In this document: piece after piece, positions 8,735 through 27,248 of the stretch | Position numbering within the stretch: the stretch's first letter is position 1 | Layout of the letters: each line of letters opens with the position of its first letter | Origin: a virus | IMG/VR virus record: IMGVR_UViG_3300034069_000595 | Location: 1-27,477 of that record | Length of the DNA stretch: 27,477 bases | Direction: 5' to 3' (one strand) | Notes under the pieces: generated by a model | The model's input: the letters and a program-made list of their open reading frames with translations, nothing else | What the model was told of the DNA's origin: nothing | Database searches by the model: none | Made by a program: the position numbers and the translations under genes

Positions 8735-9607
8735 ATGTACATCACTAACAGTCTGTTAGGATCCGAAGCCACCCAGTACGAACTCAAATCTGTCACCGTC
8801 GCGGAAACCAAGCTTTACGGCGTTGATGGAGCCCTGATAACCCAGCCAACGATCTGTTTTTACTCGCACGAACCCGCGTACAGTCGGGAGGTCTGGGCTG
8901 GAAAGGCCGAACTGCGTAAGCACTGGAACGTTGGATCGGTCGGGTTCATGCCTGCGGGTGCCGAGATCACGTCCACCCCCGAACAACCCTACAGGGAGAC
9001 GGCGATCAAATTCAGCGCCGGTCTGTTCGGAAAGGCGATCGATGGGCTTATCGACCCGTCACAGATCGACTTCCGGTTTGCCGACGTGACCAGCCACGTG
9101 ACCACAGGCCTTGCGTCTGTAATCCAGAACCTGGCCGTGACCGGCGCCTACGTGGATGCCGAGATGCTGGTGGAGAACGTGGCGCTGAGCCTTGCCGTCG
9201 CCATCGTCCGGCAGTTCACCGGCGCCGCATCCAAGGTCTTTACCGCGCCTGATGTCGAGCTGTGCGATGGACGCCTCACCCGTGTGCGGGATTTTATCGA
9301 AGCCAACCTCAGTCGGCGGATCTCCCTGATCGAGCTGGCCGACGTCGCCGCCCTGAGCCAGTACCACTTCAGTCGGCAGTTCCAACGGAAGCTCGGGATC
9401 TCCCCGATGCGGTACGTCATGCAGCGCCGCGTTGAGATGGCGAAGGTTCAGTTGCTGCGGCCGGAGGAGACAATCGCCAGCGTGGCCTACTCATGCGGCT
9501 TCGGCGGGCAAAGCCACTTCTCGACCACGTTCAAAACGTTCACCGGCATCACGCCAGGCGAGTACCGCCGAACGCGCGGGCTGCCACACCTCGGCATGAA
9601 TCCCTAA
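8735..9607 (+). CDS. AraC family transcriptional regulator
   Basis: C-terminal double HTH: ISLIELADVAALSQYHFSRQF...IASVAYSCGFGGQSHFSTTFK. Confidence 0.93.
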   Translation: MYITNSLLGSEATQYELKSVTVAETKLYGVDGALITQPTICFYSHEPAYSREVWAGKAELRKHWNVGSVGFMPAGAEITSTPEQPYRETAIKFSAGLFGKAIDGLIDPSQIDFRFADVTSHVTTGLASVIQNLAVTGAYVDAEMLVENVALSLAVAIVRQFTGAASKVFTAPDVELCDGRLTRVRDFIEANLSRRISLIELADVAALSQYHFSRQFQRKLGISPMRYVMQRRVEMAKVQLLRPEETIASVAYSCGFGGQSHFSTTFKTFTGITPGEYRRTRGLPHLGMNP

Positions 9608-14224: not shown

Positions 14225-14280
14225 GGGGCTTTCCGGACTTACTGACTATTTCGCTCCCGCAGGGCCCCACGTGGGCCCCA
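14211..14280 (+). repeat. Dispersed att-like element, copy E (arm repeats intact, core degenerate)
   Basis: ACTTA 14237-14241; AGGGCCCCACG-TGGGCCCCA 14261-14280. Confidence 0.6.
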
Positions 14281-14458
14281 CCACAAAGCAGTTGCAGCGG
14301 CATTCAGCAGGACGCTATGCTTGGGGCCTCTGAAGAAACCAGACATCTGAGGATTCCGAGATGAAGCCGATGTAAACGGGCGCGGCCCACACAGCCAATC
14401 CAGACAGCAAAACTGATCAACCAACGCCAGCAGATGCGGCGGAGTGCACAGCCAGGTA

Positions 14459-14559
14459 GGCTATTGTCAGAGTGCATTCTTCGAGTCGCCAGCCCGCACA
14501 TGCGGAACATCTTCATCAGGGGTGCCACCCGCAGCGCGGTTCGAGTCCGCAAACTAGCC
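14459..14559 (+). ncRNA. Putative tRNA-like RNA element (not a canonical tRNA)
   Basis: T-arm GCGG-TTCGAGT-CCGC 14536-14550; acceptor-like pairing GGCTA 14459-63 with TAGCC 14555-59. Confidence 0.4.
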
Positions 14560-14597
14560 GACAGAGGCAGTGCATGGTGCAAAGGTGGTAGCCCGAT

Positions 14598-14743
14598 GCA
14601 GATGAATGCGCAGGCTGATGCGACCAGGGAGGTTCCTCGCAAGGGAGCGGGCCCCTGAAAGCCACTGACAGTGTGGCGTGGTAGCTGGAGGGCTTGCAAT
14701 CCGCCAGCGGCACCAAAGCCGGAGACCAGCACCGGCCATCTGC
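14598..14743 (+). ncRNA. Putative multi-stem structured RNA
   Basis: Closing stem GCAGATG/CATCTGC; internal hairpins GCCAC/GTGGC, GCTGG/CCAGC, GCCGG/CCGGC; loops GCTG and CAGC are complementary. Confidence 0.5.
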
Positions 14744-14833
14744 TACAAGCGACCGAGGTAGAACCGGCATACCGCCGGGGAGACGAGTAGGTATCACCCC
14801 GCCCTTGTGGCGCCGGATCAGGGTAACCGGCAC

Positions 14834-14859
14834 AGCCCAGCCAACCAGCTGGGCTTTTT
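14834..14859 (+). terminator. Rho-independent terminator
   Basis: AGCCCAGC-caacca-GCTGGGCT-TTTT. Confidence 0.8.
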
Positions 14860-14880
14860 CATGCCCGCAGCTCGGGCGCC

Positions 14881-14896
14881 GTCGTGATGCCACCAT
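14881..14896 (+). promoter_or_regulatory. Putative late promoter GTCGTGA-TGC-CACCAT (leaderless geometry)
   Basis: ATG 14903 lies 6 nt after the -10-like hexamer; no RBS. Confidence 0.65.
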
Positions 14897-14902
14897 CGCG
14901 TC

Positions 14903-17900
14903 ATGAACGAACCTATCGCTGCAACGGCAGGCCCGCGTCGCGTGGTGCTGCTGGTCAAGTCTCAGAAGATCGCCCACCAGGCGGGTTACTACCTGCTCAA
15001 CGGACGCTGGCACGCTGTGAAGCAGGCCAAGCCGGTTCCGAAGGGCGCCCCTGTCGCTGCTCATCCGAAGGCTGCGGGCCACTACGTCCCGATCAAGCAC
15101 TTCACCGATGGCGAGTGGGATCAGCTGAAGTTGCCCGAGAGCAACAGCAACGCCGGCACGTTCAACGCCCAGCTCGAAAAGCTCAAGCAGTACAGCGAGG
15201 CCGGCGACGTCACCGCCATTCTGGGCATGCAGGTCGGCACGAACACCTATGGCAAGAAGCTCGCGCTGATCGCCAACAGCCTGCTCGAACAGCACGGCGC
15301 CGAGCATAAGGTTGCGCCAGGCCAGAAGGCCGGCGAGCACCATGCCGTGAAGGTGGTTCCGGACGATGCCGCCGCTCCGGCGGCGAAGCCCGAGCCGAGC
15401 ACTTTCAAAGAGATCTACGGCGATCCCTTCAAGGACATGCCCAGCCAGGCTGAGAAGCCGGCGCCGGAACCGAAGGCAGAGCCAGTCAAAGTCGAGCCCG
15501 AGAAGGCACCCGAGCCGAAGCCAGAGCCCGCCGCCAAGCCGAAGCTCGGCCCTGTTGGCGAGGCTCTGAAGGAGGCTGTCAGCGCTCCAGCTGCCCCCTC
15601 CCTGTCCATGCCTGAGTTCGCCGAGGGCAAGACCACCAAGGGCGTCCAGAAGCACTACGAGGCCAAGGCCAAAAAGGTGCTGCGTCTGGCTGCTACCAGC
15701 GACGTGGCCGGCCTGACGAACATGCTCCAGGACGGCCTCAAGCCGAACAGCAAGGGCAAGGTCGGTAACACCTGGACCGGGAAGACCCCGAACAGCAAGG
15801 CGTTGCTCGCGCTGCATGCTGCCGCCTTGCAGCAAGCTGGCGGCAAGATGGATGCGGCCCCTGAGGCGAAACCTGCGCCAGCCCCCGCCCCAGCTCCTGC
15901 GCCCGAGCCAGCCCCGGTAGCCCCAGCAGCCCCGGCGCCGGCCGCAGATCCGAAGTCTGACCTGCTCGCCCAGATCCCGTGGGACAAGCTCAGTTCGCCC
16001 GAGGCGAAGGGTGACGGATCTCCGAACAAGGAAGGCATCAACGCGAACAAGAAGCTCGCGGTGATCAAGCAGGCTGCCGAGGCCGGCGACGTGGCCGCGC
16101 TCCAGAGCATGAAATTCGGCGTCAACACGTACGGCAAGAAGCTAAACCAGGCCGTCGCCATCTCGCTCGCGGCGATCGAGGAAGGCGCGCCCGTGCCCGT
16201 GCCCGCGACTGCTCCTGCTCAGGCACCGGAGCCTGCCGCAACTGCCCCTGTTGCCGCTCCTGCCGAGGAAGGCCCGAAGGATGGCGACACCAAGCCCGGC
16301 GCCGATGGCACCATGCTCGTGTTCAAAAATGGGCGCTGGCACAAGTCGGTGCCCACCGATGAGCACGGGGAGATGCCGCCGACGTGGGTTCCCGTCGATG
16401 ACGAGAAAGGCACGCTTGAGCTGACCGATACGGAGAAACAGGCCGTATTCGACTATCTGAACAGCACCGAGAAGACCGAGCACCGGCACGAGGCAGGCAA
16501 AGCCATCTTCAAAAAGCTGCCTGAGGAGCTGAAGCAGGCGCTGAACCTGGCGGCGATCAACTTCAAGGCTGCTGCCGACGTCGAGGCCGCATCCGCGCAC
16601 CCGATTGACGCCGTGCCGTTGCCGGATCTGTCGAACCTGTCCGCTCATAACCAAGCGCTGGTCATTACCGCGCTCAGCCTACTGCAAAGCCAGGTCAAGG
16701 CCGATGGTGCTGCTGCACTGAAGGGCATGACCAAAAAGATGGCCTCGGGCAAGGTGATCACCAACCTGCCCAAGGCCAACGGCAGCAAAATCAAAGTCTC
16801 AGGCGTCCACGGTAAGGGTGAGGCCTTCGACGGGATCTACGATTACGTCGAGGCGCTGAAGGCAGCTGTTGGCAAGTCTGCACCCAAACCCAAGGCCACG
16901 CCGATGTCGGCGCCGGTCACGCCGCAGGCCGATGCACCGATCCCCTCGATGGACGACTGGAAGCAGGTCGGGCCTCAGGGTGGCAGCAACCCGGGTGGCA
17001 AGTTCGTCGATCCGACCGGCACCGAGTGGTACTGCAAATTCCCGTCCGATCCAGACGTGGCGAAGTCAGAGGTTCTGGCGGCCCGCCTGTATGCGGCGGC
17101 CGGCGTGTCCGGCCAGGATGCGCAGCTGATCACCCGCGATGGCAAGATCGGCATCGCGAGCAAGTGGCAGGACGTGAAGAAGGTCGCTCCGGCGGACCTG
17201 GCGAAGACCGATGGTGTCGCATCCGGCTTCGCGGTCGACGCGTGGCTGGGCAACTGGGATGTCGTCGGCATGGAGTTCGACAACCTCCAGGTCGACGTCG
17301 CCACCGGCAAAGCCATGCGTGTCGATGCTGGCGGCTCGCTCCAGTACCGCGCGCAGGGTGGCAAGAAGGCGTTCGGCAACAACGTGGTGGAGCTGGACAG
17401 CCTGCGCGACAAGGCCATCAACCCGCAGGCTGCTGCGGTGTTCGGCAAGCTCACGAAGGCCGACATCACCGCCTCGGTCGCGAAGATCGCCCAGCTGCCG
17501 GACGCGAACATCCGCGCCCTGGTGGAGAAGTTCGGCCCGGGCAACGAGGCAGAGCGCAAGGCGCTGGCTGACACCCTGGTCGCTCGCAAGGCTGACCTGC
17601 TGACGAAGTACCCCAAGGCGGCGAAGGCGGTGAAGAAGCGCCTCGACCCGACCAGCCTGCCCGTTCCCGAGGAGCGGCTGCCGAACGCGCACGACTTCAA
17701 CAACTGGCTGAACTCAGGCAAGCCCCTGTCGAGCCAGGCTCACGTCAACGCGGCGAACGCGAACGTCGAAAAGCAGATGATCGCGCTGGCGAAGACCGGC
17801 AACCTGGTCGAGCTGAAGAAATTCCAATTCGACGCGATCGACAAAGCCACCGGCGAGGCGACTGGACACACGATTCCGATCGCAAATCACCCATCCAAGC

Positions 17901-18688
17901 ACGTCGTTCAGATGCACGCCGACCTGGTGCAGATGCTCGATGAGATCGCGAACCCGCCGCAGCCGCTCAAGATCTTCAACGAGACCGAGGTCGGCACCCT
18001 CAACGAGCTGGCGGCAGCCTTCCCGTCTAAGGCCTTCGGCACCACGGCGGCATCGGTCCACTCGAACGAGAAGCTGGGCTTCTGGGTCGTACTCGGCGGC
18101 GCGAACGGCGGCAGCAAATTCAAGCCTTCTGTCGTGAAGGATTTCACCAGCACGATGGTCGCGGCGGGCAAGGCCAAGTTCAAGGAATGCTTCGGCCTGG
18201 CAAAGCACTTCATCCACTCGGTGCAGGCGAGCGGCAGCTACAACGACCTGTTCCGCGAGGGCAAGTCACACGACCATCAGGGCAACCTGTTGTCGGACGT
18301 CGCCAAGGCCGCGGAGGCGTATGCCACCAGCCACGATGAAGGCACCTCGGTCTATCGCTGGCAGCACATGCCCGACGAGATGGTCAAGAAGATCCTGTCC
18401 GCTCCGGATGGCACCGTGTTTCAGGCCACCGGCCCGATGTGCACCAGCTACTCGCCCACCGCGACCTCGGGCTTCGGTACGCACCGCGTGACAATCCGCT
18501 ACGCCAAGGGGGCCAAGGCGGTCGAGAGCTTCGGCTCTGGCGGGTTCGCTGGTGAAAAGGAAGTTACCACGCTGCCCAATAGCCGGTTCGTGATCCTGTC
18601 TAAGCAAATGGTCCCTAACGAGAAGAACCCAAGCAAGCAGCGATTGGAGCTGGAAGTGCTAATGCTTCCTCCGGATCTTGGGTTATAA
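14903..18688 (+). CDS. 1261-aa multidomain protein: repeats + HipA/PI3K-like kinase + C-terminal ADP-ribosyltransferase (probable virion-associated effector)
   Basis: Kinase motifs GPQGGSNPG, YCKF, SEVLA, DAWLGNWD, VDAG; ART motifs YRW 18353, CTS 18440, EKE 18554; Pro/Ala linkers. Confidence 0.8.
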   Translation: MNEPIAATAGPRRVVLLVKSQKIAHQAGYYLLNGRWHAVKQAKPVPKGAPVAAHPKAAGHYVPIKHFTDGEWDQLKLPESNSNAGTFNAQLEKLKQYSEAGDVTAILGMQVGTNTYGKKLALIANSLLEQHGAEHKVAPGQKAGEHHAVKVVPDDAAAPAAKPEPSTFKEIYGDPFKDMPSQAEKPAPEPKAEPVKVEPEKAPEPKPEPAAKPKLGPVGEALKEAVSAPAAPSLSMPEFAEGKTTKGVQKHYEAKAKKVLRLAATSDVAGLTNMLQDGLKPNSKGKVGNTWTGKTPNSKALLALHAAALQQAGGKMDAAPEAKPAPAPAPAPAPEPAPVAPAAPAPAADPKSDLLAQIPWDKLSSPEAKGDGSPNKEGINANKKLAVIKQAAEAGDVAALQSMKFGVNTYGKKLNQAVAISLAAIEEGAPVPVPATAPAQAPEPAATAPVAAPAEEGPKDGDTKPGADGTMLVFKNGRWHKSVPTDEHGEMPPTWVPVDDEKGTLELTDTEKQAVFDYLNSTEKTEHRHEAGKAIFKKLPEELKQALNLAAINFKAAADVEAASAHPIDAVPLPDLSNLSAHNQALVITALSLLQSQVKADGAAALKGMTKKMASGKVITNLPKANGSKIKVSGVHGKGEAFDGIYDYVEALKAAVGKSAPKPKATPMSAPVTPQADAPIPSMDDWKQVGPQGGSNPGGKFVDPTGTEWYCKFPSDPDVAKSEVLAARLYAAAGVSGQDAQLITRDGKIGIASKWQDVKKVAPADLAKTDGVASGFAVDAWLGNWDVVGMEFDNLQVDVATGKAMRVDAGGSLQYRAQGGKKAFGNNVVELDSLRDKAINPQAAAVFGKLTKADITASVAKIAQLPDANIRALVEKFGPGNEAERKALADTLVARKADLLTKYPKAAKAVKKRLDPTSLPVPEERLPNAHDFNNWLNSGKPLSSQAHVNAANANVEKQMIALAKTGNLVELKKFQFDAIDKATGEATGHTIPIANHPSKHVVQMHADLVQMLDEIANPPQPLKIFNETEVGTLNELAAAFPSKAFGTTAASVHSNEKLGFWVVLGGANGGSKFKPSVVKDFTSTMVAAGKAKFKECFGLAKHFIHSVQASGSYNDLFREGKSHDHQGNLLSDVAKAAEAYATSHDEGTSVYRWQHMPDEMVKKILSAPDGTVFQATGPMCTSYSPTATSGFGTHRVTIRYAKGAKAVESFGSGGFAGEKEVTTLPNSRFVILSKQMVPNEKNPSKQRLELEVLMLPPDLGL

Positions 18689-18706
18689 TCCTGACAAATT
18701 TGAGGA

Positions 18707-19210
18707 ATGACCATGACAGATCCGCGTGAAATTGAGGGTAGCCCCGAGCGGGCTGCCGATCGCGGTCGTGCTGAAGATCTCGGTTTCAGCATGTCCGACC
18801 GCCCCTCGCTGGGCAATGCCGATGTCGTTCGCGGGCTTGTGTCCGAGTTCGCCGGCAAGGTCGTGGACGTGCGCAAGGCGTACAACCAGGACAAGTTCAC
18901 TGGTGAGCAGGCGCAGGAGCGTGTTCGCGCGCTGGCGCATCAGTACGGTGATATCGTCATGGGCCGGAACGGCGCCTATGATGCCCTGCCGTGGAACTCG
19001 CCTGCGAAGCTCGGCCTGCGGATCCGCCTGGTCACCCCCGAGATCGAGGGCATCACCGACCCTGGCGAGCTGCTGTTCGTCACGGTCGGCACGTCGCTGT
19101 CATCCCTCGCCGCGGCGCATGAAGCTGGCCGCCTGACCGATGCGGCTGCCGAGAGCCACACGAAGGAAATGCTCGAGGATACCGCCAACCTGATCCTCGG
19201 TGTCCGATGA
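18707..19210 (+). CDS. Hypothetical helical protein (possible partner or immunity factor)
   Basis: RBS GAGGA; start at 18707 or 18713; directly after the ART domain; function inferred from position only. Confidence 0.7.
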   Translation: MTMTDPREIEGSPERAADRGRAEDLGFSMSDRPSLGNADVVRGLVSEFAGKVVDVRKAYNQDKFTGEQAQERVRALAHQYGDIVMGRNGAYDALPWNSPAKLGLRIRLVTPEIEGITDPGELLFVTVGTSLSSLAAAHEAGRLTDAAAESHTKEMLEDTANLILGVR

Positions 19211-20034
19211 GCAGTTCGTTCGAGATGCAGATGGAATTGCTCGGCGCCGCGCCGTCATCTGCGGAAGCTCTCGTGAAAAGCCGCATCCCTGGCTACACCA
19301 AGCGTGACGGCACCTACGTCAAGCCGCACAGCCGGACCGGTGAAGCCCATGCGCACGTTGCCCAGCAGCATCCCCGAGCTGGCGAGAAAGGCGAAGTCGT
19401 CGTGGTCCATCAGCCCAGTCACGCATCTGCTGTCAGCACGTGGCACAGCCCGAACGCCGTTGCGACCTTCCTGCCTGACGGAGACGTCCCTGCGTCTCTG
19501 AACGGCATCCAGCTGCGTCAGTGGAAGGACCACCCGACCACCGCCGAGGGCTGGGACTACGTGGACGGGGTGAATGACGACCTCGTCGAGCCGAAGTTCA
19601 AGCTGCCCCCGGGCAAGAAGGCGGCGTCCGGCGTGATCATCCAGGAGCCAGACGGCCGCGTTTGGCTGGTGGCTCCGACCAACGCGTTTGGCGGCTACGA
19701 GGCCACCTTCCCGAAGGGCACGGCCGAGCCGGACCTGTCTCTCCAGGCCAACGCCATCAAGGAGGCGTTCGAGGAGTGCGGCTTGCAGGTGGAAATCACC
19801 GGCCTCCTCGGCGACTACGAGCGGACCACCTCGGTCGCCCGCATGTACACCGCAAAACGTGTGGGCGGGACGCCGATCGCCATGGGCTGGGAGAGCCAGG
19901 CGGTGCACCTGGTGCCGAAGGACAAGCTCTACGACGTGCTCAACATGTGGTCAGACCACAGTATTGTTGAAGATATCGGCGGCGGATCGGCTCCTGCCGC
20001 AAGTAATAAGCAAGTAAAGGGTAATACACCTTAA
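19207..20034 (+). CDS. NUDIX hydrolase with N-terminal extension
   Basis: Nudix box variant FPKGTAEPDLSLQANAIKEAFEECGL; N-terminal LVKSRIPGYTKRDGTYVKPH. Confidence 0.88.
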   Translation: MSSSFEMQMELLGAAPSSAEALVKSRIPGYTKRDGTYVKPHSRTGEAHAHVAQQHPRAGEKGEVVVVHQPSHASAVSTWHSPNAVATFLPDGDVPASLNGIQLRQWKDHPTTAEGWDYVDGVNDDLVEPKFKLPPGKKAASGVIIQEPDGRVWLVAPTNAFGGYEATFPKGTAEPDLSLQANAIKEAFEECGLQVEITGLLGDYERTTSVARMYTAKRVGGTPIAMGWESQAVHLVPKDKLYDVLNMWSDHSIVEDIGGGSAPAASNKQVKGNTP

Positions 20035-20046
20035 AAGCTTGCGCCG

Positions 20047-20070
20047 TTGATCAAATTTGAATAAGCTACT
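20047..20070 (+). promoter_or_regulatory. Putative operator/promoter TTGATCAAATTTGA
   Basis: Matches TTGATCAAAAATGA at 634; AT-rich intergenic segment. Confidence 0.45.
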
Positions 20071-20101
20071 CCCATCTTAAACGAACAAGGGGTTGTAGCT
20101 T

Positions 20102-20455
20102 ATGTGGATCTGCCTATCCGATGCGTTCCTTTCCATCGTCCATAAGGATTGCGAGCCTGACGAACTGCTCGTTCGCGCTCGTCGTCAGGGCGATATCCAG
20201 AAGGTATTCCCTGATGCCAAGGTCAAGAAGACCGTCGGCAACGACTACCTGTACCGCGCTGTGATCAAGCGCACTGTTGTGGCCGAGGCCATGACCAAGC
20301 TGACTATGGAAACGATCGACTACCCGAACTTCAAAAACACCGTCCGCGATAACAAGCTGCACAGCGCGTTCAATGCCATCTGGCACACGATCGCGAAGCT
20401 GCAGGTCATCGCGCCGTACAGCCGCCAGTCGCGCCAGCGGGGCCTTGGCCTGTGA
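20102..20455 (+). CDS. Phage hypothetical protein (MW...F.SIV...LLVRAR...DY.YRA)
   Basis: Clear ORF with a recognisable conserved-looking motif pattern. Confidence 0.75.
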   Translation: MWICLSDAFLSIVHKDCEPDELLVRARRQGDIQKVFPDAKVKKTVGNDYLYRAVIKRTVVAEAMTKLTMETIDYPNFKNTVRDNKLHSAFNAIWHTIAKLQVIAPYSRQSRQRGLGL

Positions 20456-21192
20456 ACATTGCCGAACTGGCCGCATCGGGCGCCCTGTTCGTAGCCAGCC
20501 ATTCCGGCGGCAAGGATTCTCAGGCCCAGCTGATCCGCCTGCTCGAACAGATCCCGGCAGCCCAGATCGTCGTGGTTCATGCGTCCCTTGGCGCGATGGA
20601 ATGGCCTGGCGCCATGGAGCTGGCTCGCGATCAGGCCGAAGACGCTGGCCTTCCATTCATCGTGGCGAAGGCTGAGAAAACCCTGCTGGACATGGTCGAG
20701 CGCCGGTTCGCGAACCGTCCCGAAGTCCCGAGTTGGCCGTCCGCCTCCCACCGTCAGTGCACTAGCGACCTGAAACGCGGCCCGATCCAGCGTGAGGTGC
20801 GCCGCTACGCGAAGGCGAACGGATTCAAGGTGATCGTCAACTGTCTGGGCCTGCGCGCGCAGGAGTCGCCCGGCCGTGCCAAGCGGAAGGAGTTCAGCCG
20901 CATGGGCATCAGCAACAGCGTCAACACCTGGTACGAATGGCTCCCGGTGCACGATCTCTCTGTCGCCGACGTGTTCGGCATCATTGAGGGTGCCGGGCAG
21001 AAGCCGCACTACGCCTACGCTCTCGGCAATGAACGGCTGAGCTGCGTGTTCTGCATTATGGCGAGCAAGCGTGACCTCGCTAACGGTGCGGCCAACAATC
21101 CCGAGCTGCTGGCCCAGTATGACGCGCTTGAAAAGCGCACCGGTTACACGATGCACATGAGCCGAATCCCGTTGGTGGAACTAGCGTCTTAA
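20452..21192 (+). CDS. PAPS reductase family (PP-loop) protein
   Basis: SHSGGKDS PP-loop, CTSDLK, GLRAQESPGR, RLSCVFCI. Confidence 0.9.
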   Translation: MNIAELAASGALFVASHSGGKDSQAQLIRLLEQIPAAQIVVVHASLGAMEWPGAMELARDQAEDAGLPFIVAKAEKTLLDMVERRFANRPEVPSWPSASHRQCTSDLKRGPIQREVRRYAKANGFKVIVNCLGLRAQESPGRAKRKEFSRMGISNSVNTWYEWLPVHDLSVADVFGIIEGAGQKPHYAYALGNERLSCVFCIMASKRDLANGAANNPELLAQYDALEKRTGYTMHMSRIPLVELAS

Positions 21193-22625: not shown

Positions 22626-22789
22626 CAGCCACATCTCAAGAACAGTTCGAGCAGAGCTACAGCGAATACACCGGTCACCCGCTCGAATTCATTAAGTTGG
22701 CCCGCCAGTCCAACGACAGCTACAGCGTGCCGCGCATTGCGACGGCGTACACCTGGTGGAAGCGAGCGCGCGAGGTCCAGCCAGCATGA
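22622..22789 (+). CDS. 55-aa hypothetical protein
   Basis: Not in the ORF track; ATGA coupling at both ends. Confidence 0.6.
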   Translation: MTATSQEQFEQSYSEYTGHPLEFIKLARQSNDSYSVPRIATAYTWWKRAREVQPA

Positions 22790-23520
22790 TCGAAACCATA
22801 GAGATCCAACGCATCAAGCACTTCGCCGCCAACACCGCCGGCCGCGACTTCGCCGTGGGCGACATCCACGGGCACTTCACCCGGCTCCAGGCGGCTCTGG
22901 ACGCGGTCGGGTTCGATCCAGCTGTCGATCGGCTGTTCAGCGTTGGCGACCTGGTTGACCGCGGGCCCGAGTGCCTGGACGTGCTGGATTGGCTGTCCAA
23001 GCCGTGGTTCCACCCAGTGCGTGGCAACCATGACGACTACGTCTGCCGGTACGACACCTGCGATACAGGAAACTGGCTGTTCAATGGCGGCATGTGGTTC
23101 CAGGGGCTGCCGTCGTCGGAGCAGGCGGAATACGCGGTCATGTTCCGCGAGATACCAATCGCGATCGAGGTAGAAACGCCGCAGGGCCTGATCGGCATCG
23201 TGCACGCTGACTGTCCGTTCCCATCGTGGGACGAGCTGCGCCACGAGCTGGAAGCGCCGGAGAGTAATAAGCGGCTGAAGCAAGTGCAGAACACCTGCAT
23301 GTGGTCGCGTACCCGCATCGAGCACGGCGAGACGCATGGAGTCGATGGCATCTACGCCCTCGTGGTTGGGCATACGCCGCTGCGTTCGCCAGGACTGCTC
23401 GGCAACGTCATATTCATCGACACCAAAGGGTGGAGACCTGACGACGACGGCTACTTCACCCTGCTGAACCTGACCACCATGGAAATGGTCCCGCCAGCGC
23501 CAGCGAAGCTGGAGTGGTAG
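22786..23520 (+). CDS. Ser/Thr metallophosphoesterase, lambda NinI-like
   Basis: GDIHG, GDLVDRG, RGNH, VHA, GHTP, IDT motifs. Confidence 0.93.
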   Translation: MIETIEIQRIKHFAANTAGRDFAVGDIHGHFTRLQAALDAVGFDPAVDRLFSVGDLVDRGPECLDVLDWLSKPWFHPVRGNHDDYVCRYDTCDTGNWLFNGGMWFQGLPSSEQAEYAVMFREIPIAIEVETPQGLIGIVHADCPFPSWDELRHELEAPESNKRLKQVQNTCMWSRTRIEHGETHGVDGIYALVVGHTPLRSPGLLGNVIFIDTKGWRPDDDGYFTLLNLTTMEMVPPAPAKLEW

Positions 23521-24619: not shown

Positions 24620-24635
24620 GTCGTGATGCGACTAT
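24620..24635 (+). promoter_or_regulatory. Putative late promoter GTCGTGA-TGC-GACTAT (leaderless geometry)
   Basis: ATG 24642 lies 6 nt after the hexamer; no RBS. Confidence 0.65.
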
Positions 24636-24641
24636 CGCCCC

Positions 24642-27248
24642 ATGGCGAAATTCAAAATCACACTGCCCCCGCTGCACCCCGTCCAGCGCAAAATCACCAG
24701 CCGGCCGAGCCGTTTCAATGCCATCGCCATGGGCGAGCAAGGCGGGAAAACGACGCTCGGCATTGACGTGCTCATAGCATCCGCTCGGGGAGCGCTCGCG
24801 GGTGGCGCGCCAGTCGCGTGGTTCTCGGCCACCAAGGATGACCTCATCGTAGCGCGGCGCCAGATCATGGCCCTGCTGGACGGGTTCATTCTCCAGCGTC
24901 GTAGCGATACCCGGGTGGAGCTGAAGAACGGCAACACCATCAGCTTCTACTCTCTGGATGAGCTGTCCGACGTGACCGCCCAGTTCGGCCTGGTCGTCGT
25001 CGATGACGTGCGCAAGGTCGAGGGCTTCCTGGATTTCTGGGAAGACATCCTCTCGCAGACGCTGAAGGTCCATGACGGGCAGGCCTGGCTGCTGTCGGGC
25101 GCATACGGCAAGCGCAACGACTTCTATCGCCTGTTCCAGCGCGGCCTGGCCGATCCCAAGGAGTGGTCGTGCTGGCAGTACGATTCGTTCTGCAACCCGC
25201 ACCTGTCCGATGAGACCCGAGAGGAAGCCGACCAGGTGCCGGAGCCGGAGTACCGCCAGCGGTTCGGCGCCGAGTTCCTGGAAGTCGCCGTCGAGCTGAC
25301 CGACGCGCAACGCATCATCGGTCCGAACGAGCGGTTCATCGACTGGTGCGAACGCCTGGAGGCGGAAGGCCTGAAAGTCGATGGCGTGCCCTTCACGCTG
25401 TCCGATCGGCCGGCAATGCGGTTCATCTACGAGCTGATCCCTTCCACCAGGGAGGAGGCGTTCGAGCGCATCGACGTGATCATGAAGTGCACGCAGGTTG
25501 GCTTCACCGTCATGGAGATGCTGGCGGCGCTGTACCTGGCCCTGCGCTTCGCCCCGACGAAGATCGGCATGTTCATGCCGTCCACGTCCCTGGCCGCTGG
25601 TAAGTCGTCACAGCGCTTCCTGCCGATCACGCGAACCATCCCCGCCGTACAGCGCCTGATGACCGAGAAGCACGCCTCAGGCGGTCGTGGCGGCGAGGGT
25701 AACGTGATGATCCGGAACCTCGGGCCGTCGCGCTTCCACTTCCTGTGGACCTCTGGCGCGACCGCGACCGAGTCGTTCCCGATGGACGTCATCTCGTTCG
25801 ACGAGGTGCAGGAAATGCTCATCGCCGACATGGAGAAGGTGGTCGAGCGTCTGTCCGCGTCGAAGCTGAAATACACCCTGATGGGCTCGACGGCGAACTG
25901 GCCGGATAGCGACATCCATTGGTGGTACATGCGGGGCACGCAGCACCAGTTCCACACCGAGTGCCCGTGCTGTGGCGTGGGCCAGGTGCTGGATGAGCAC
26001 TTCCCCGAGTGCATCCAGTTCGACCCGACGCACCCGAAGCGCAACCAGCGCGGCGGCGGCAGCCAGCTCGGCGAGTTCCGCTACCAGTGCCACTCCTGCA
26101 AGGGCTGGATCGATGACCCGCAGGTGGGTCAGTGGATCCCGAAGAACCCCACGGCCGAGATCCAGTCGGTTCACTTCCCGCAGTTCCTGTCGCCGACCAT
26201 CACGCCGCGCAACATCATCGAGGCGTACCGCAACAACGACAGCATGAAGGGCTTCTACAACCGGAAGCTTGGCAAGCCGTACACCGACCCATCGCAGGTG
26301 CCGGTCAACCTGGAGATGCTGAACAACTGCGCGCGCGAAGGCATGCGCCTTGGCGTCGTCTGGAAGGATCGCGCCCGAGGTACGTTCATGGGCATCGACC
26401 AGATGGGTGCCTTCAACGTGGCGATCCTGAAGGAGCGTCTACCGAACGGTAAGCAGGCCGTGATCCACATCGAGTACATCTTCGATGCTGACCCGTTCAT
26501 GCGATGCAGCACGCTGATGGATATGTATGGCGTCCAGTGCTGCGTGGTGGAGACCCTGCCGAACTTCAACGACGCGCATCGCTTCGCACAGCGGCACCCG
26601 GGCAAGGTGTTCCTCGCCGGCTACGGGAACATGGACGGCAACATGATGATCTGGGGCGACACGCCCACGTCCAACCCGTCAGATCGCCGAACTGACGAGG
26701 AGGCCCAGCAGAAATACACGGTTCGCCTCGACCAGTTCAAATGTATGCAGACGTCGATGGCCCGCTTCGCCACTCAGGCGTGCGTGTTCCCCGATCCGGA
26801 TGGGCTGGTCCAGGATTACACGGAGAAGGGCGTAACGACCCGCGTGGCGGTCTGTAAGGAGGTCGCGTTCTTCCACTTCACGCGCACGGCGCTGGTGGTG
26901 GAGAAGGATGAGGACGAGAAGAAGTACAAGCGCAAGGTGGTGAAGGTGGGTATCGACCCCCACACCAGCTACGCGAACATGCTGTGCGATGTGGCCTGGT
27001 CAAGGGCTCACGGCACCAGCACGTTCATACTTCCGGATGTTGAGGGGAAGACCAAGGATCTTCGGCTCAACGCCGTCAAGGTGCCTGGCCTGGCCGGGAA
27101 GATGATTGAGGAGATCAATCAGCTGTCGGGCGACGTCTGTGGGCGCTGCATCAGCCGAGATCCTGACACTGGCATGTGCTCGGAGCTGGAAGCAAGGACG
27201 CAGCCTTCTGACCCCGGATGCTGGGCGTTCATCGCCATCCAGTCGTGA
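24642..27248 (+). CDS. terL: Terminase large subunit, GpA type, with an extra N-terminal terminase-like ATPase domain
   Basis: GpA motifs KCTQVGFT, ISFDEV, CPCC/CHSC, FYNRKLG, MGID; N-terminal LHPVQ...GEQGGKTT...VVVDD. Confidence 0.88.
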   Translation: MAKFKITLPPLHPVQRKITSRPSRFNAIAMGEQGGKTTLGIDVLIASARGALAGGAPVAWFSATKDDLIVARRQIMALLDGFILQRRSDTRVELKNGNTISFYSLDELSDVTAQFGLVVVDDVRKVEGFLDFWEDILSQTLKVHDGQAWLLSGAYGKRNDFYRLFQRGLADPKEWSCWQYDSFCNPHLSDETREEADQVPEPEYRQRFGAEFLEVAVELTDAQRIIGPNERFIDWCERLEAEGLKVDGVPFTLSDRPAMRFIYELIPSTREEAFERIDVIMKCTQVGFTVMEMLAALYLALRFAPTKIGMFMPSTSLAAGKSSQRFLPITRTIPAVQRLMTEKHASGGRGGEGNVMIRNLGPSRFHFLWTSGATATESFPMDVISFDEVQEMLIADMEKVVERLSASKLKYTLMGSTANWPDSDIHWWYMRGTQHQFHTECPCCGVGQVLDEHFPECIQFDPTHPKRNQRGGGSQLGEFRYQCHSCKGWIDDPQVGQWIPKNPTAEIQSVHFPQFLSPTITPRNIIEAYRNNDSMKGFYNRKLGKPYTDPSQVPVNLEMLNNCAREGMRLGVVWKDRARGTFMGIDQMGAFNVAILKERLPNGKQAVIHIEYIFDADPFMRCSTLMDMYGVQCCVVETLPNFNDAHRFAQRHPGKVFLAGYGNMDGNMMIWGDTPTSNPSDRRTDEEAQQKYTVRLDQFKCMQTSMARFATQACVFPDPDGLVQDYTEKGVTTRVAVCKEVAFFHFTRTALVVEKDEDEKKYKRKVVKVGIDPHTSYANMLCDVAWSRAHGTSTFILPDVEGKTKDLRLNAVKVPGLAGKMIEEINQLSGDVCGRCISRDPDTGMCSELEARTQPSDPGCWAFIAIQS

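Follow-up and report, generated by a model that had tools for sequence, protein, structure and literature searches.

A phage gene block joining an Alt-like ADP-ribosyltransferase and a CtkA-fold kinase to a co-exchanged partner and a NUDIX hydrolase: a candidate injected effector system

To our knowledge, virion-injected ADP-ribosyltransferases (ARTs) are known almost only from Alt of phage T4, whose ExE glutamate pair is the arginine-transferase signature that it shares with C2, iota and VIP2. Among the kinases that concern us here, CtkA and CotH are protein kinases. Alt is packaged in the head (PMC5512222), and the text of two accounts of polyvalent phage proteins deals with an H-Y-D ART and a different kinase family, leaves Alt/VIP2 ARTs outside the genuine polyvalent proteins and describes no cognate inhibitor (PMC5512222; PMC9503650). 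HopAG1, a type III effector present in 213 P. syringae genomes (PMC9963460, Table 1), has an N-terminal ART and a C-terminal NUDIX domain, with no kinase mentioned in the main text of that report. Here we analyse a block of four genes at 14903-20455 of a 27,477-nucleotide stretch of viral DNA (the window), which makes up the initial 27.5 kb of a phage sequence of 93,589 bp (IMG/VR record IMGVR_UViG_3300034069_000595). Judged from sequence comparison, the block is real, conserved and a variant of the T4-Alt and polyvalent effectors, with three unnamed protein families. We read it, with a probability of about one half, as encoding an injected arginine-ADP-ribosylating effector with a cognate inhibitor and a clean-up arm, whose kinase would act on NAD/ADP-ribose chemistry.

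The block comprises four open reading frames (ORFs), which, like all its features given below, lie on the plus strand: 14903-18688 (1261 amino acids, aa; the big protein), 18707-19210 (167 aa; the partner), 19207-20034 (275 aa; the NUDIX hydrolase, overlapping the partner ORF by 4 nt) and 20102-20455 (117 aa). An earlier note, made from the DNA letters, had listed these ORFs and their motifs, and all were borne out by ORF calls and a residue check. The terminase of the window shares 92% identity with its counterpart in Pseudomonas phage Touem01 and 40-67% with those of ST4, Dolphis, Jeremy, phiT5282EW, ECML-606-1, fHe-Yen8-01, Mecenats66, a myovirus (PMC9503643), and PHB04. The block is carried by 8/9 cultured members of this ~90-kb Dolphis/ST4-like family, with the same four-gene order in all six of the cultured relatives whose loci were fetched. 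About 250 kinase-bearing loci were retrieved, 100 of which had all five parts, and 70 remained after dereplication (the cassettes). Ninety loci, not dereplicated, had the entire ART and 2.5 kb or more of sequence beyond it; in 90/90 of these the next gene after the ART was the partner, and the NUDIX gene was present in 90/90 and the 117-aa gene in 86/90; the neighbourhood whose conservation the earlier note had proposed to check is thus retained. Among 50,697 phage records the 117-aa protein matched 8 and the NUDIX hydrolase 9, these being the same 8 that have the big gene plus one unannotated record; this reciprocal conservation test rests on these phage searches, a viral-contig scan with the 117-aa protein having returned one locus. 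A literature search found no published account of the block or of its kinase family, with the figures and supplements of PMC5512222 and PMC9503650, which may list such architectures, outside its coverage.

The big protein has 479 homologs, that of ST4 being named ADP-ribosyltransferase, and as a whole it matched nothing in Pfam, PHROGs or NCBIfam. It consists of a variable Pro/Ala/Lys-rich N-terminal arm of repeated helical and G-R-W-H hairpin units (14963-16936), a kinase domain (aa 679-913; 16937-17641), a linker domain (17645-18118) and the ART (18119-18685). In an AlphaFold2 model of aa 670-1261 (104 sequences, predicted local-distance difference test, pLDDT, 91, predicted template-modelling score 0.59), the kinase domain matched H. 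pylori CtkA with Z 16.7 (root-mean-square deviation 3.6 over 215 aligned residues, 18% identity) and CotH with Z 13.7, and the ART (aa 1073-1261) matched C3 exoenzyme with Z 15.0 (deviation 2.8, 177 aligned), VIP2 (Z 13.2) and iota. Both predicted folds were therefore recovered by the domain-wise modelling that the earlier note had suggested, and its C-terminal R-S-E clade ART stands, with R1152, S1182, E1218 and E1220 in place. Cassette ARTs also match Pfam-seeded RSE ARTs (hhalign 99.3%), and the isolated C-terminus gave only a sub-threshold match to ADPrib_exo_Tox (E 0.012). The HipA/PI3K-like kinase proposed earlier is retained as to kinase fold and K-E-D-N-D set (K712, E723, D786, N794, D808) but not as to HipA: it shares fold and catalytic set with CtkA/CotH/HipA-like kinases, CtkA and CotH being nearest, but differs from them in sequence and in having a D-x7-N catalytic loop without the HipA-type His, followed by a family-specific YRAQG...K segment. 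HipA_C did not match the domain at E<=1 (its relatives reach at most 24 bits against a cut-off of 30.5), no Pfam family reached threshold for it, and a profile search of PDB sequences gave nothing significant. HopBF1, considered as a candidate for the nearest kinase, was not among the structural matches listed, and a profile scan of the neighbour genes detected no HipB/HipS-type antitoxin family. Across the 70 cassettes the five kinase residues are invariant, E1218 and E1220 are kept in 70/70 and S1182 in 69/70, and the NUDIX box (Gx5Ex7REUxEExGU) retains its G and three E in 70/70, with K replacing R in 63/70; kinase, ART and NUDIX hydrolase therefore look intact.

These features set the block beside Alt and polyvalent proteins while keeping it distinct from both. 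Like Alt, it has an ExE R-S-E ART of the VIP2/C3 fold, apparently late expression and, as annotation and motif predict, likely head packaging with N-terminal processing. Unlike Alt, to which no search detected sequence similarity and with which it shares no PHROG match, its ART is fused to a kinase and accompanied by a co-swapped partner, a coupled NUDIX hydrolase and the 117-aa gene; it occurs in Dolphis/ST4-like myoviruses and not in T4-like phages, tblastn of the 50,697 phage records having returned 20 records, none T4-like. As in polyvalent and MuF effectors, a large, presumably head-packaged protein with a variable arm unites in one phage polypeptide two unrelated effector domains, and other phages have MuF fusions of this kinase, but no MuF domain was found anywhere in the big protein (a MuF-like gene sits elsewhere in the head operon of relatives), and a profile scan found none of the polyvalent-network markers ART-PolyVal, MPTase, LPDs and InPase in it. 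By these comparisons the big protein is neither an Alt ortholog, nor a MuF protein, nor HipA. In homologs, a WGR domain (the nucleic-acid-binding module of PARP) is inserted in the arm of many (P0012, P0077, P0102 and others), one of which adds a second ART, ART-PolyVal being present in P0102; InPase accompanies the kinase in L014.

The evidence that the partner belongs to the ART comes from their joint exchange. Touem01 matches the window at 93% identity in the N-terminus, 79% in the kinase, 75% in the NUDIX hydrolase and 78% in the 117-aa protein, with no BLAST match between its ART and partner and those of the window; in ST4 it is the ART (79%) and the partner (72%) that are close. Spearman correlations of pairwise identity across the 70 loci, which are descriptive as the pairs are not independent, were 0.68 for ART-partner, 0.73 for linker-ART and 0.66 for kinase-NUDIX, and 0.17, 0.12 and 0.09 for kinase-partner, kinase-ART and ART-NUDIX, respectively. 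After partialling two backbone markers (30 loci) ART-partner stayed at 0.69 and kinase-NUDIX at 0.53. In the 80 pairs with kinases at least 70% but ARTs at most 30% identical, the partners averaged 20% (maximum 27%) and the NUDIX hydrolases 70%. Moreover, in 10/70 cassettes the kinase is fused to the NUDIX C-terminus and the partner still lies behind the ART. Linker, ART and partner therefore move as one cassette, a variable C-terminal domain being swapped with its adjacent downstream cognate gene as toxins are in polymorphic toxin-immunity systems.

Modelling points in the same direction. Big-protein aa 915-1261 with partner aa 18-167 gave a complex score of 0.75 (runs 0.75/0.55/0.77) against 0.27 for the best control, the mark applied being reached by 116/157 solved complexes and 2/215 mismatched pairs, a calibration that holds only roughly with the alignments used. 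The runs agree in at least 66% of contacts, with partner pLDDT at least 82. The modelled interface comprises aa 1019-1067 of the linker domain, which wrap the partner, and ART residues 1111-1118, 1152-1196 and 1226-1230, including R1152 and N1114. That the 167-aa protein binds its cognate ART is thus supported by the model as well as by co-swapping and invariable adjacency, in agreement, as far as binding goes, with the inhibitor role first suggested for it. Searches of Pfam, PHROGs and NCBIfam with this helical protein returned a single sub-threshold match, and a profile search of PDB sequences nothing significant; its family has 805 cluster representatives at 50% identity (E<=0.001). It also occurs in bacteria: among 401 genomes of the order of G001 four have it, two with tandem arrays of ~3 divergent copies and two at the end of NUDIX-X-partner fusions, of which one is truncated and the other adjoins type III restriction genes. 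In the stretches fetched around host partner genes, the kinase and ART profiles had no match. Orphan arrays are typical of the immunity genes of polymorphic toxins, and we therefore read the partner, by analogy, as an inhibitor, with a chaperone or subunit as the alternative. Tandem divergent genes of the family follow an NfeD-SPFH pair in bacterial chromosomes and have no ART in their vicinity (L275:5401-7120, L276:4982-7255), and an unnamed domain with the motif WF.YF...HRSW.G and no Pfam match separates NUDIX and partner domains in host proteins (P0180, P0191, L277, L262).

The kinase has a different set of associations. The 250 kinase loci fall into 170 clusters, 67 cassette-type and 103 others; among the latter, a Pfam-seeded ART of RSE, DRAT-like or scabin-like type is present in 29, a terminal RSE domain recognised by hhalign (83-91%) in a further 10, a NUDIX domain in 5 and a nearby ART gene in 5. 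The kinase thus shares a protein or locus with an ART or NUDIX domain in 116/170 clusters, a count made without a base-rate control. At least 27 clusters have it fused to MuF/minor capsid domains, and its further contexts include a WXG100-NUDIX-kinase-ART protein (L118), a Vibrio ART-kinase protein and HopAG1. In HopAG1-type effectors (L116, L117, L133, L239-L243, L247, L248; HopAG1 loci were identified by cluster names) an unannotated CtkA-fold kinase homologous to that of the phage lies between ART and NUDIX domain, HopAG1 having 41% identity to the window over 213 aa in the kinase and 42% over 202 aa in the NUDIX domain. HopAG1 hence joins an ART, this kinase family and this NUDIX subfamily in one chain, contrary to the earlier statement that no characterised system has this combination. 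It differs from the block in being a single ART-kinase-NUDIX chain delivered to plants, with no partner or 117-aa gene nearby and an ART with no BLAST-detectable similarity to that of the block. Its kinase groups with phage NUDIX-kinase fusions (FastTree support 0.966, 127 rows; 85 SH-aLRT in an unfinished, midpoint-rooted IQ-TREE run of 58 rows), a weak grouping that does not establish a phage origin of HopAG1. Elsewhere in the family, about 20 MuF-kinase proteins (L064, L068, L105 and ~17 others) have conserved H..Y.FTR..NETIF and WPDGR motifs in their last 235 aa; to the eye these C-terminal domains, like the L135 group and DUF3626, resemble ARTs, but all failed the profile tests and were not counted. 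The Vibrio ART-kinase protein (L114:4783-6690) is likely a type III effector; the small gene that precedes it resembles, by eye, a secretion chaperone.

How kinase and ART relate decides between our reading and its strongest rival, in which the virion would deliver two independent warheads, an ART and, separate from it, a Ser/Thr protein kinase that shuts down the translation or the defence proteins of the host, with partner and NUDIX hydrolase serving the ART only. The earlier note favoured such a pair. CtkA and CotH as best structural matches, the independent evolution of kinase and ART, the existence of solo kinases and of a phosphatase-kinase fusion (L165), and the typical combination of unrelated activities in polyvalent proteins, as the text of PMC5512222 has it, are what one would expect of it. 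Against it stand the repeated kinase-NUDIX fusions (the 10/70 cassettes, HopAG1 and L118) and the retention of kinase motifs in both phage and plant-delivered forms, which would suit a universal substrate; nor was a co-varying kinase-specific inhibitor family found, the 117-aa protein fusing to NUDIX domains instead. The recurrence of the kinase alongside ARTs in proteins delivered by capsids and by type VII and type III systems, together with its NUDIX coupling, points rather to coupled chemistry. Independent warheads are therefore not established, and we judge them a serious possibility but the less probable one, the kinase likely working on NAD/ADP-ribose chemistry. The 41% identity between bacterial- and plant-delivered kinases and the ties to NAD-related domains suggest a universal nucleotide-type substrate, for which the odds against a protein target seem to us about even.

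The NUDIX hydrolase (19207-20034; PF00293, E 5.6e-11) has a KExxEE box and belongs to the HopAG1 NUDIX subfamily; its NCBIfam match as an ADP-ribose pyrophosphatase fell far below cut-off. The 117-aa NUDIX-associated domain (20102-20455), with invariant W, S, R, R, D, Y, R, K and W, matched nothing in Pfam, PHROGs or NCBIfam, and a profile search of PDB sequences gave nothing significant. Its model folds confidently (pLDDT 93.6) and had no Foldseek match at E<=0.001, the best Z among 48,161 chains being 3.9, which does not establish a new fold. Among its longer homologs 18/26 are NUDIX fusions, two of them with this very NUDIX subfamily and two with an added partner-like domain (hhalign 96%). 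In the 401 genomes it occurs at 8 places in 7 genomes, namely one phage-type locus, four NUDIX fusions, two positions beside a NUDIX gene and one alone. On the Aeromonas plasmid pE31A a 117-aa-NUDIX fusion follows a WYL regulator and an ADP-ribosylglycohydrolase (ARG) in a defence island, a layout predicted to counter viral ADP-ribosylation (PMC9503650, section 3.8). The block resembles such ARG-centric host systems in this fusion but differs in that its 117-aa and partner domains, unnamed in that section, adjoin an ART. Of the MuF-kinase clusters with sufficient flanking sequence, 17/25 also have the 117-aa gene, in many cases on the opposite strand; the NUDIX fusions weaken the candidacy of its product as a kinase antitoxin. 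Host loci with partner, NUDIX and 117-aa domains show that all three accessory genes recombine there without an ART, and such host-kept domains probably serve as antidotes. NUDIX hydrolase and 117-aa protein are accordingly viewed as a likely ADP-ribose clean-up arm, and the counter-role to ADP-ribose envisaged for the NUDIX hydrolase from the start gains support from the ART-less host loci.

The same enzymes would also suit an anti-defence kit for clearing nucleotides, in which the ART would be an NAD glycohydrolase and kinase and NUDIX hydrolase would destroy NAD-derived alarm signals, no protein being modified; kinase and NUDIX hydrolase are tightly coupled, and virion-packaged NUDIX enzymes have been proposed, in the text of PMC9503650, to counter soluble ADP-ribose signals. 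The invariant ExE of an arginine transferase, a swapped ART-partner pair that suggests an arms race over a protein-level activity, and the harm that an NAD drain would do to the phage itself make this improbable.

An injected effector has to reach the virion, and here annotation and motif agree. In the GenBank record of fHe-Yen8-01 the orthologs of big protein, partner and NUDIX hydrolase (g129, g130, g131) are labelled particle-associated and that of the 117-aa protein (g132) hypothetical, the partner ortholog being recognised by BLAST (E 4e-5) and by a hidden Markov model (122 bits). The big protein has an N-terminal LxK[SA] motif (K19; 14948-14962), found in 49/56 cassette big proteins and 115/120 homologs, which occurs also in the major capsid protein, scaffold and prohead protease of this phage. 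It is present in 63/70 NUDIX hydrolases (G allowed; K24 of LxK[SAG] in the window), 2/70 partners and 10/62 117-aa proteins. We presume from SPO1/A511-type phages that K-S/A is a maturation-protease site, and LxK[SA] is likely a head-maturation or packaging signal. The partner, motif-less yet annotated as particle-associated, fits carriage on the big protein, which is itself likely packed in the virion, as the earlier note had supposed. In G000 (C1:39789-42805) the C-terminal part of the prohead protease gene repeats the N-terminal maturation segment of the major capsid protein, and the scaffold has many LxKS repeats.

Transcription appears to follow the structural genes. A late-promoter-type motif, TCGTGA-N7-AT, common to terL and structural operons, lies at 14882-14896 upstream of the big gene; the pattern is exact there (14881) and before terL at 24620. 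With at most one mismatch the pattern has 5 matches in the window against 1.11 expected, and 0/100 shuffles reach 5, confirming the terL-type promoter that had been noticed. Genome-wide, TCGTGA-N7-[AC]T is found at 20 places, many of them ahead of structural operons, and it stands upstream of the big gene in 41/56 relatives with an intact start, of the NUDIX gene in 7/70, of the partner in 0/70 and of the 117-aa gene in 0/61; the last of these is therefore probably transcribed separately. Only by eye can a sigma-70 promoter be made out ahead of the 117-aa gene; a scan did not list it. That the block is instead a prophage-expressed toxin-antitoxin or superinfection-exclusion module, as a tyrosine integrase encoded in the genome, relatives found as prophages and a toxin-then-antidote gene order might suggest, is very improbable in view of the late motif, the capsid-type N-terminal motif, the particle-associated annotation and the MuF/minor capsid fusions of the same kinase.

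In the injected-effector reading the block would be transcribed late, the motif being observed and the timing deduced from it. Big protein and NUDIX hydrolase would be packaged through LxK[SA], the partner riding on the big protein, their virion presence being annotated in one relative. The partner, predicted to bind the linker as well as the ART on its NAD-cleft side, would hold the ART off in the producing cell and in the virion, as co-exchange and orphan host copies suggest. After ejection the ExE ART would modify host Arg residues as T4 Alt does, and the NUDIX hydrolase, with a cofactor in the 117-aa domain made outside the late programme, would cleave NAD(H) or ADP-ribose, the latter either free or bound to protein. 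The kinase may phosphorylate NAD, ADP-ribose or an ADP-ribose/phosphoribose mark, at roughly even odds with a protein. Phages exchange the linker-ART-partner cassette like a polymorphic toxin-immunity pair, and hosts keep the three protective parts by themselves, likely as antidotes.

Several observations weigh against this reading. The first Arg of the ART, at position 1152, is R in 53/70 cassettes and K in 17/70, and the protein-kinase nature of CtkA and CotH sits poorly with a nucleotide-type substrate. One of the three complex runs had only 57 contacts, and the modelled interface omits S1182, E1218 and E1220, for which reason the partner may be a chaperone or subunit instead of a blocker. 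Kinase and NUDIX hydrolase each track the N-terminal domain at ~0.5 (30 loci), and their correlation is thus partly shared descent. The virion evidence is one depositor's annotation, and no publication giving the method was found. PHB04, a cultured family member, has none of the block genes, and the block is therefore dispensable. An annotated ARG was seen at just one ART-less host locus among those examined. As to the kinase, 34 clusters have conserved C-terminal domains unconfirmed as ARTs, the remainder are fragments or solo kinases, as in Rhodopseudomonas (L113, L115, L119), and, according to the text of PMC5512222, no protein-modifying domain is commoner in polyvalent proteins than the ART.

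A bolder version appears rather unlikely to us: the kinase would found an unrecognised family phosphorylating NAD, ADP-ribose or the mark, ART, kinase and NUDIX hydrolase would together write an eraser-resistant modification or metabolite, this module would be common to phages, actinobacterial type VII toxins and HopAG1, taken from phage, and bacteria would respond with NUDIX fusions and with captured inhibitors that bind the ART, an anti-ADP-ribosylation defence not yet described. On the more modest reading as an injected arginine-ADP-ribosylating effector, the block would supplement Alt with a family of ART inhibitors that are swapped along with their cognate ARTs and occur in bacteria as orphans too. 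It would also bring to light a kinase family, so far without annotation, that is linked to NAD chemistry in three kinds of delivery machine and through which the middle domain of HopAG1 could be approached. The resistance of hosts to ADP-ribosylation by phages, which has so far been predicted, would become directly testable in culturable pairs (P. putida phages Dolphis and Jeremy, E. coli phage ECML-606-1).

Around the block, an intrinsic-terminator-like hairpin (14834-14860) lies directly upstream, assigned by position only, as the region has about as many such sites as expected by chance (8 vs 7.0). The ~650 bp at 14230-14880, between a 70-aa ORF and the late promoter, contain no convincing gene. 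An AT-richer gene for an AraC-family regulator is found at 8735-9607 of the window, and ST4 has an AraC gene directly upstream of the big gene. Next after the block comes a PAPS-reductase-like gene (20452-21192), the slot being taken by a restriction-type gene in ST4, Touem01 and Dolphis, and 2.3 kb beyond it a calcineurin-like phosphoesterase (22756-23520), a possible counter-enzyme for the kinase. The 868-aa terminase (24642-27248) has an extra N-terminal region of ~230 aa that matches a second terminase profile and is absent in the PHB04 match.

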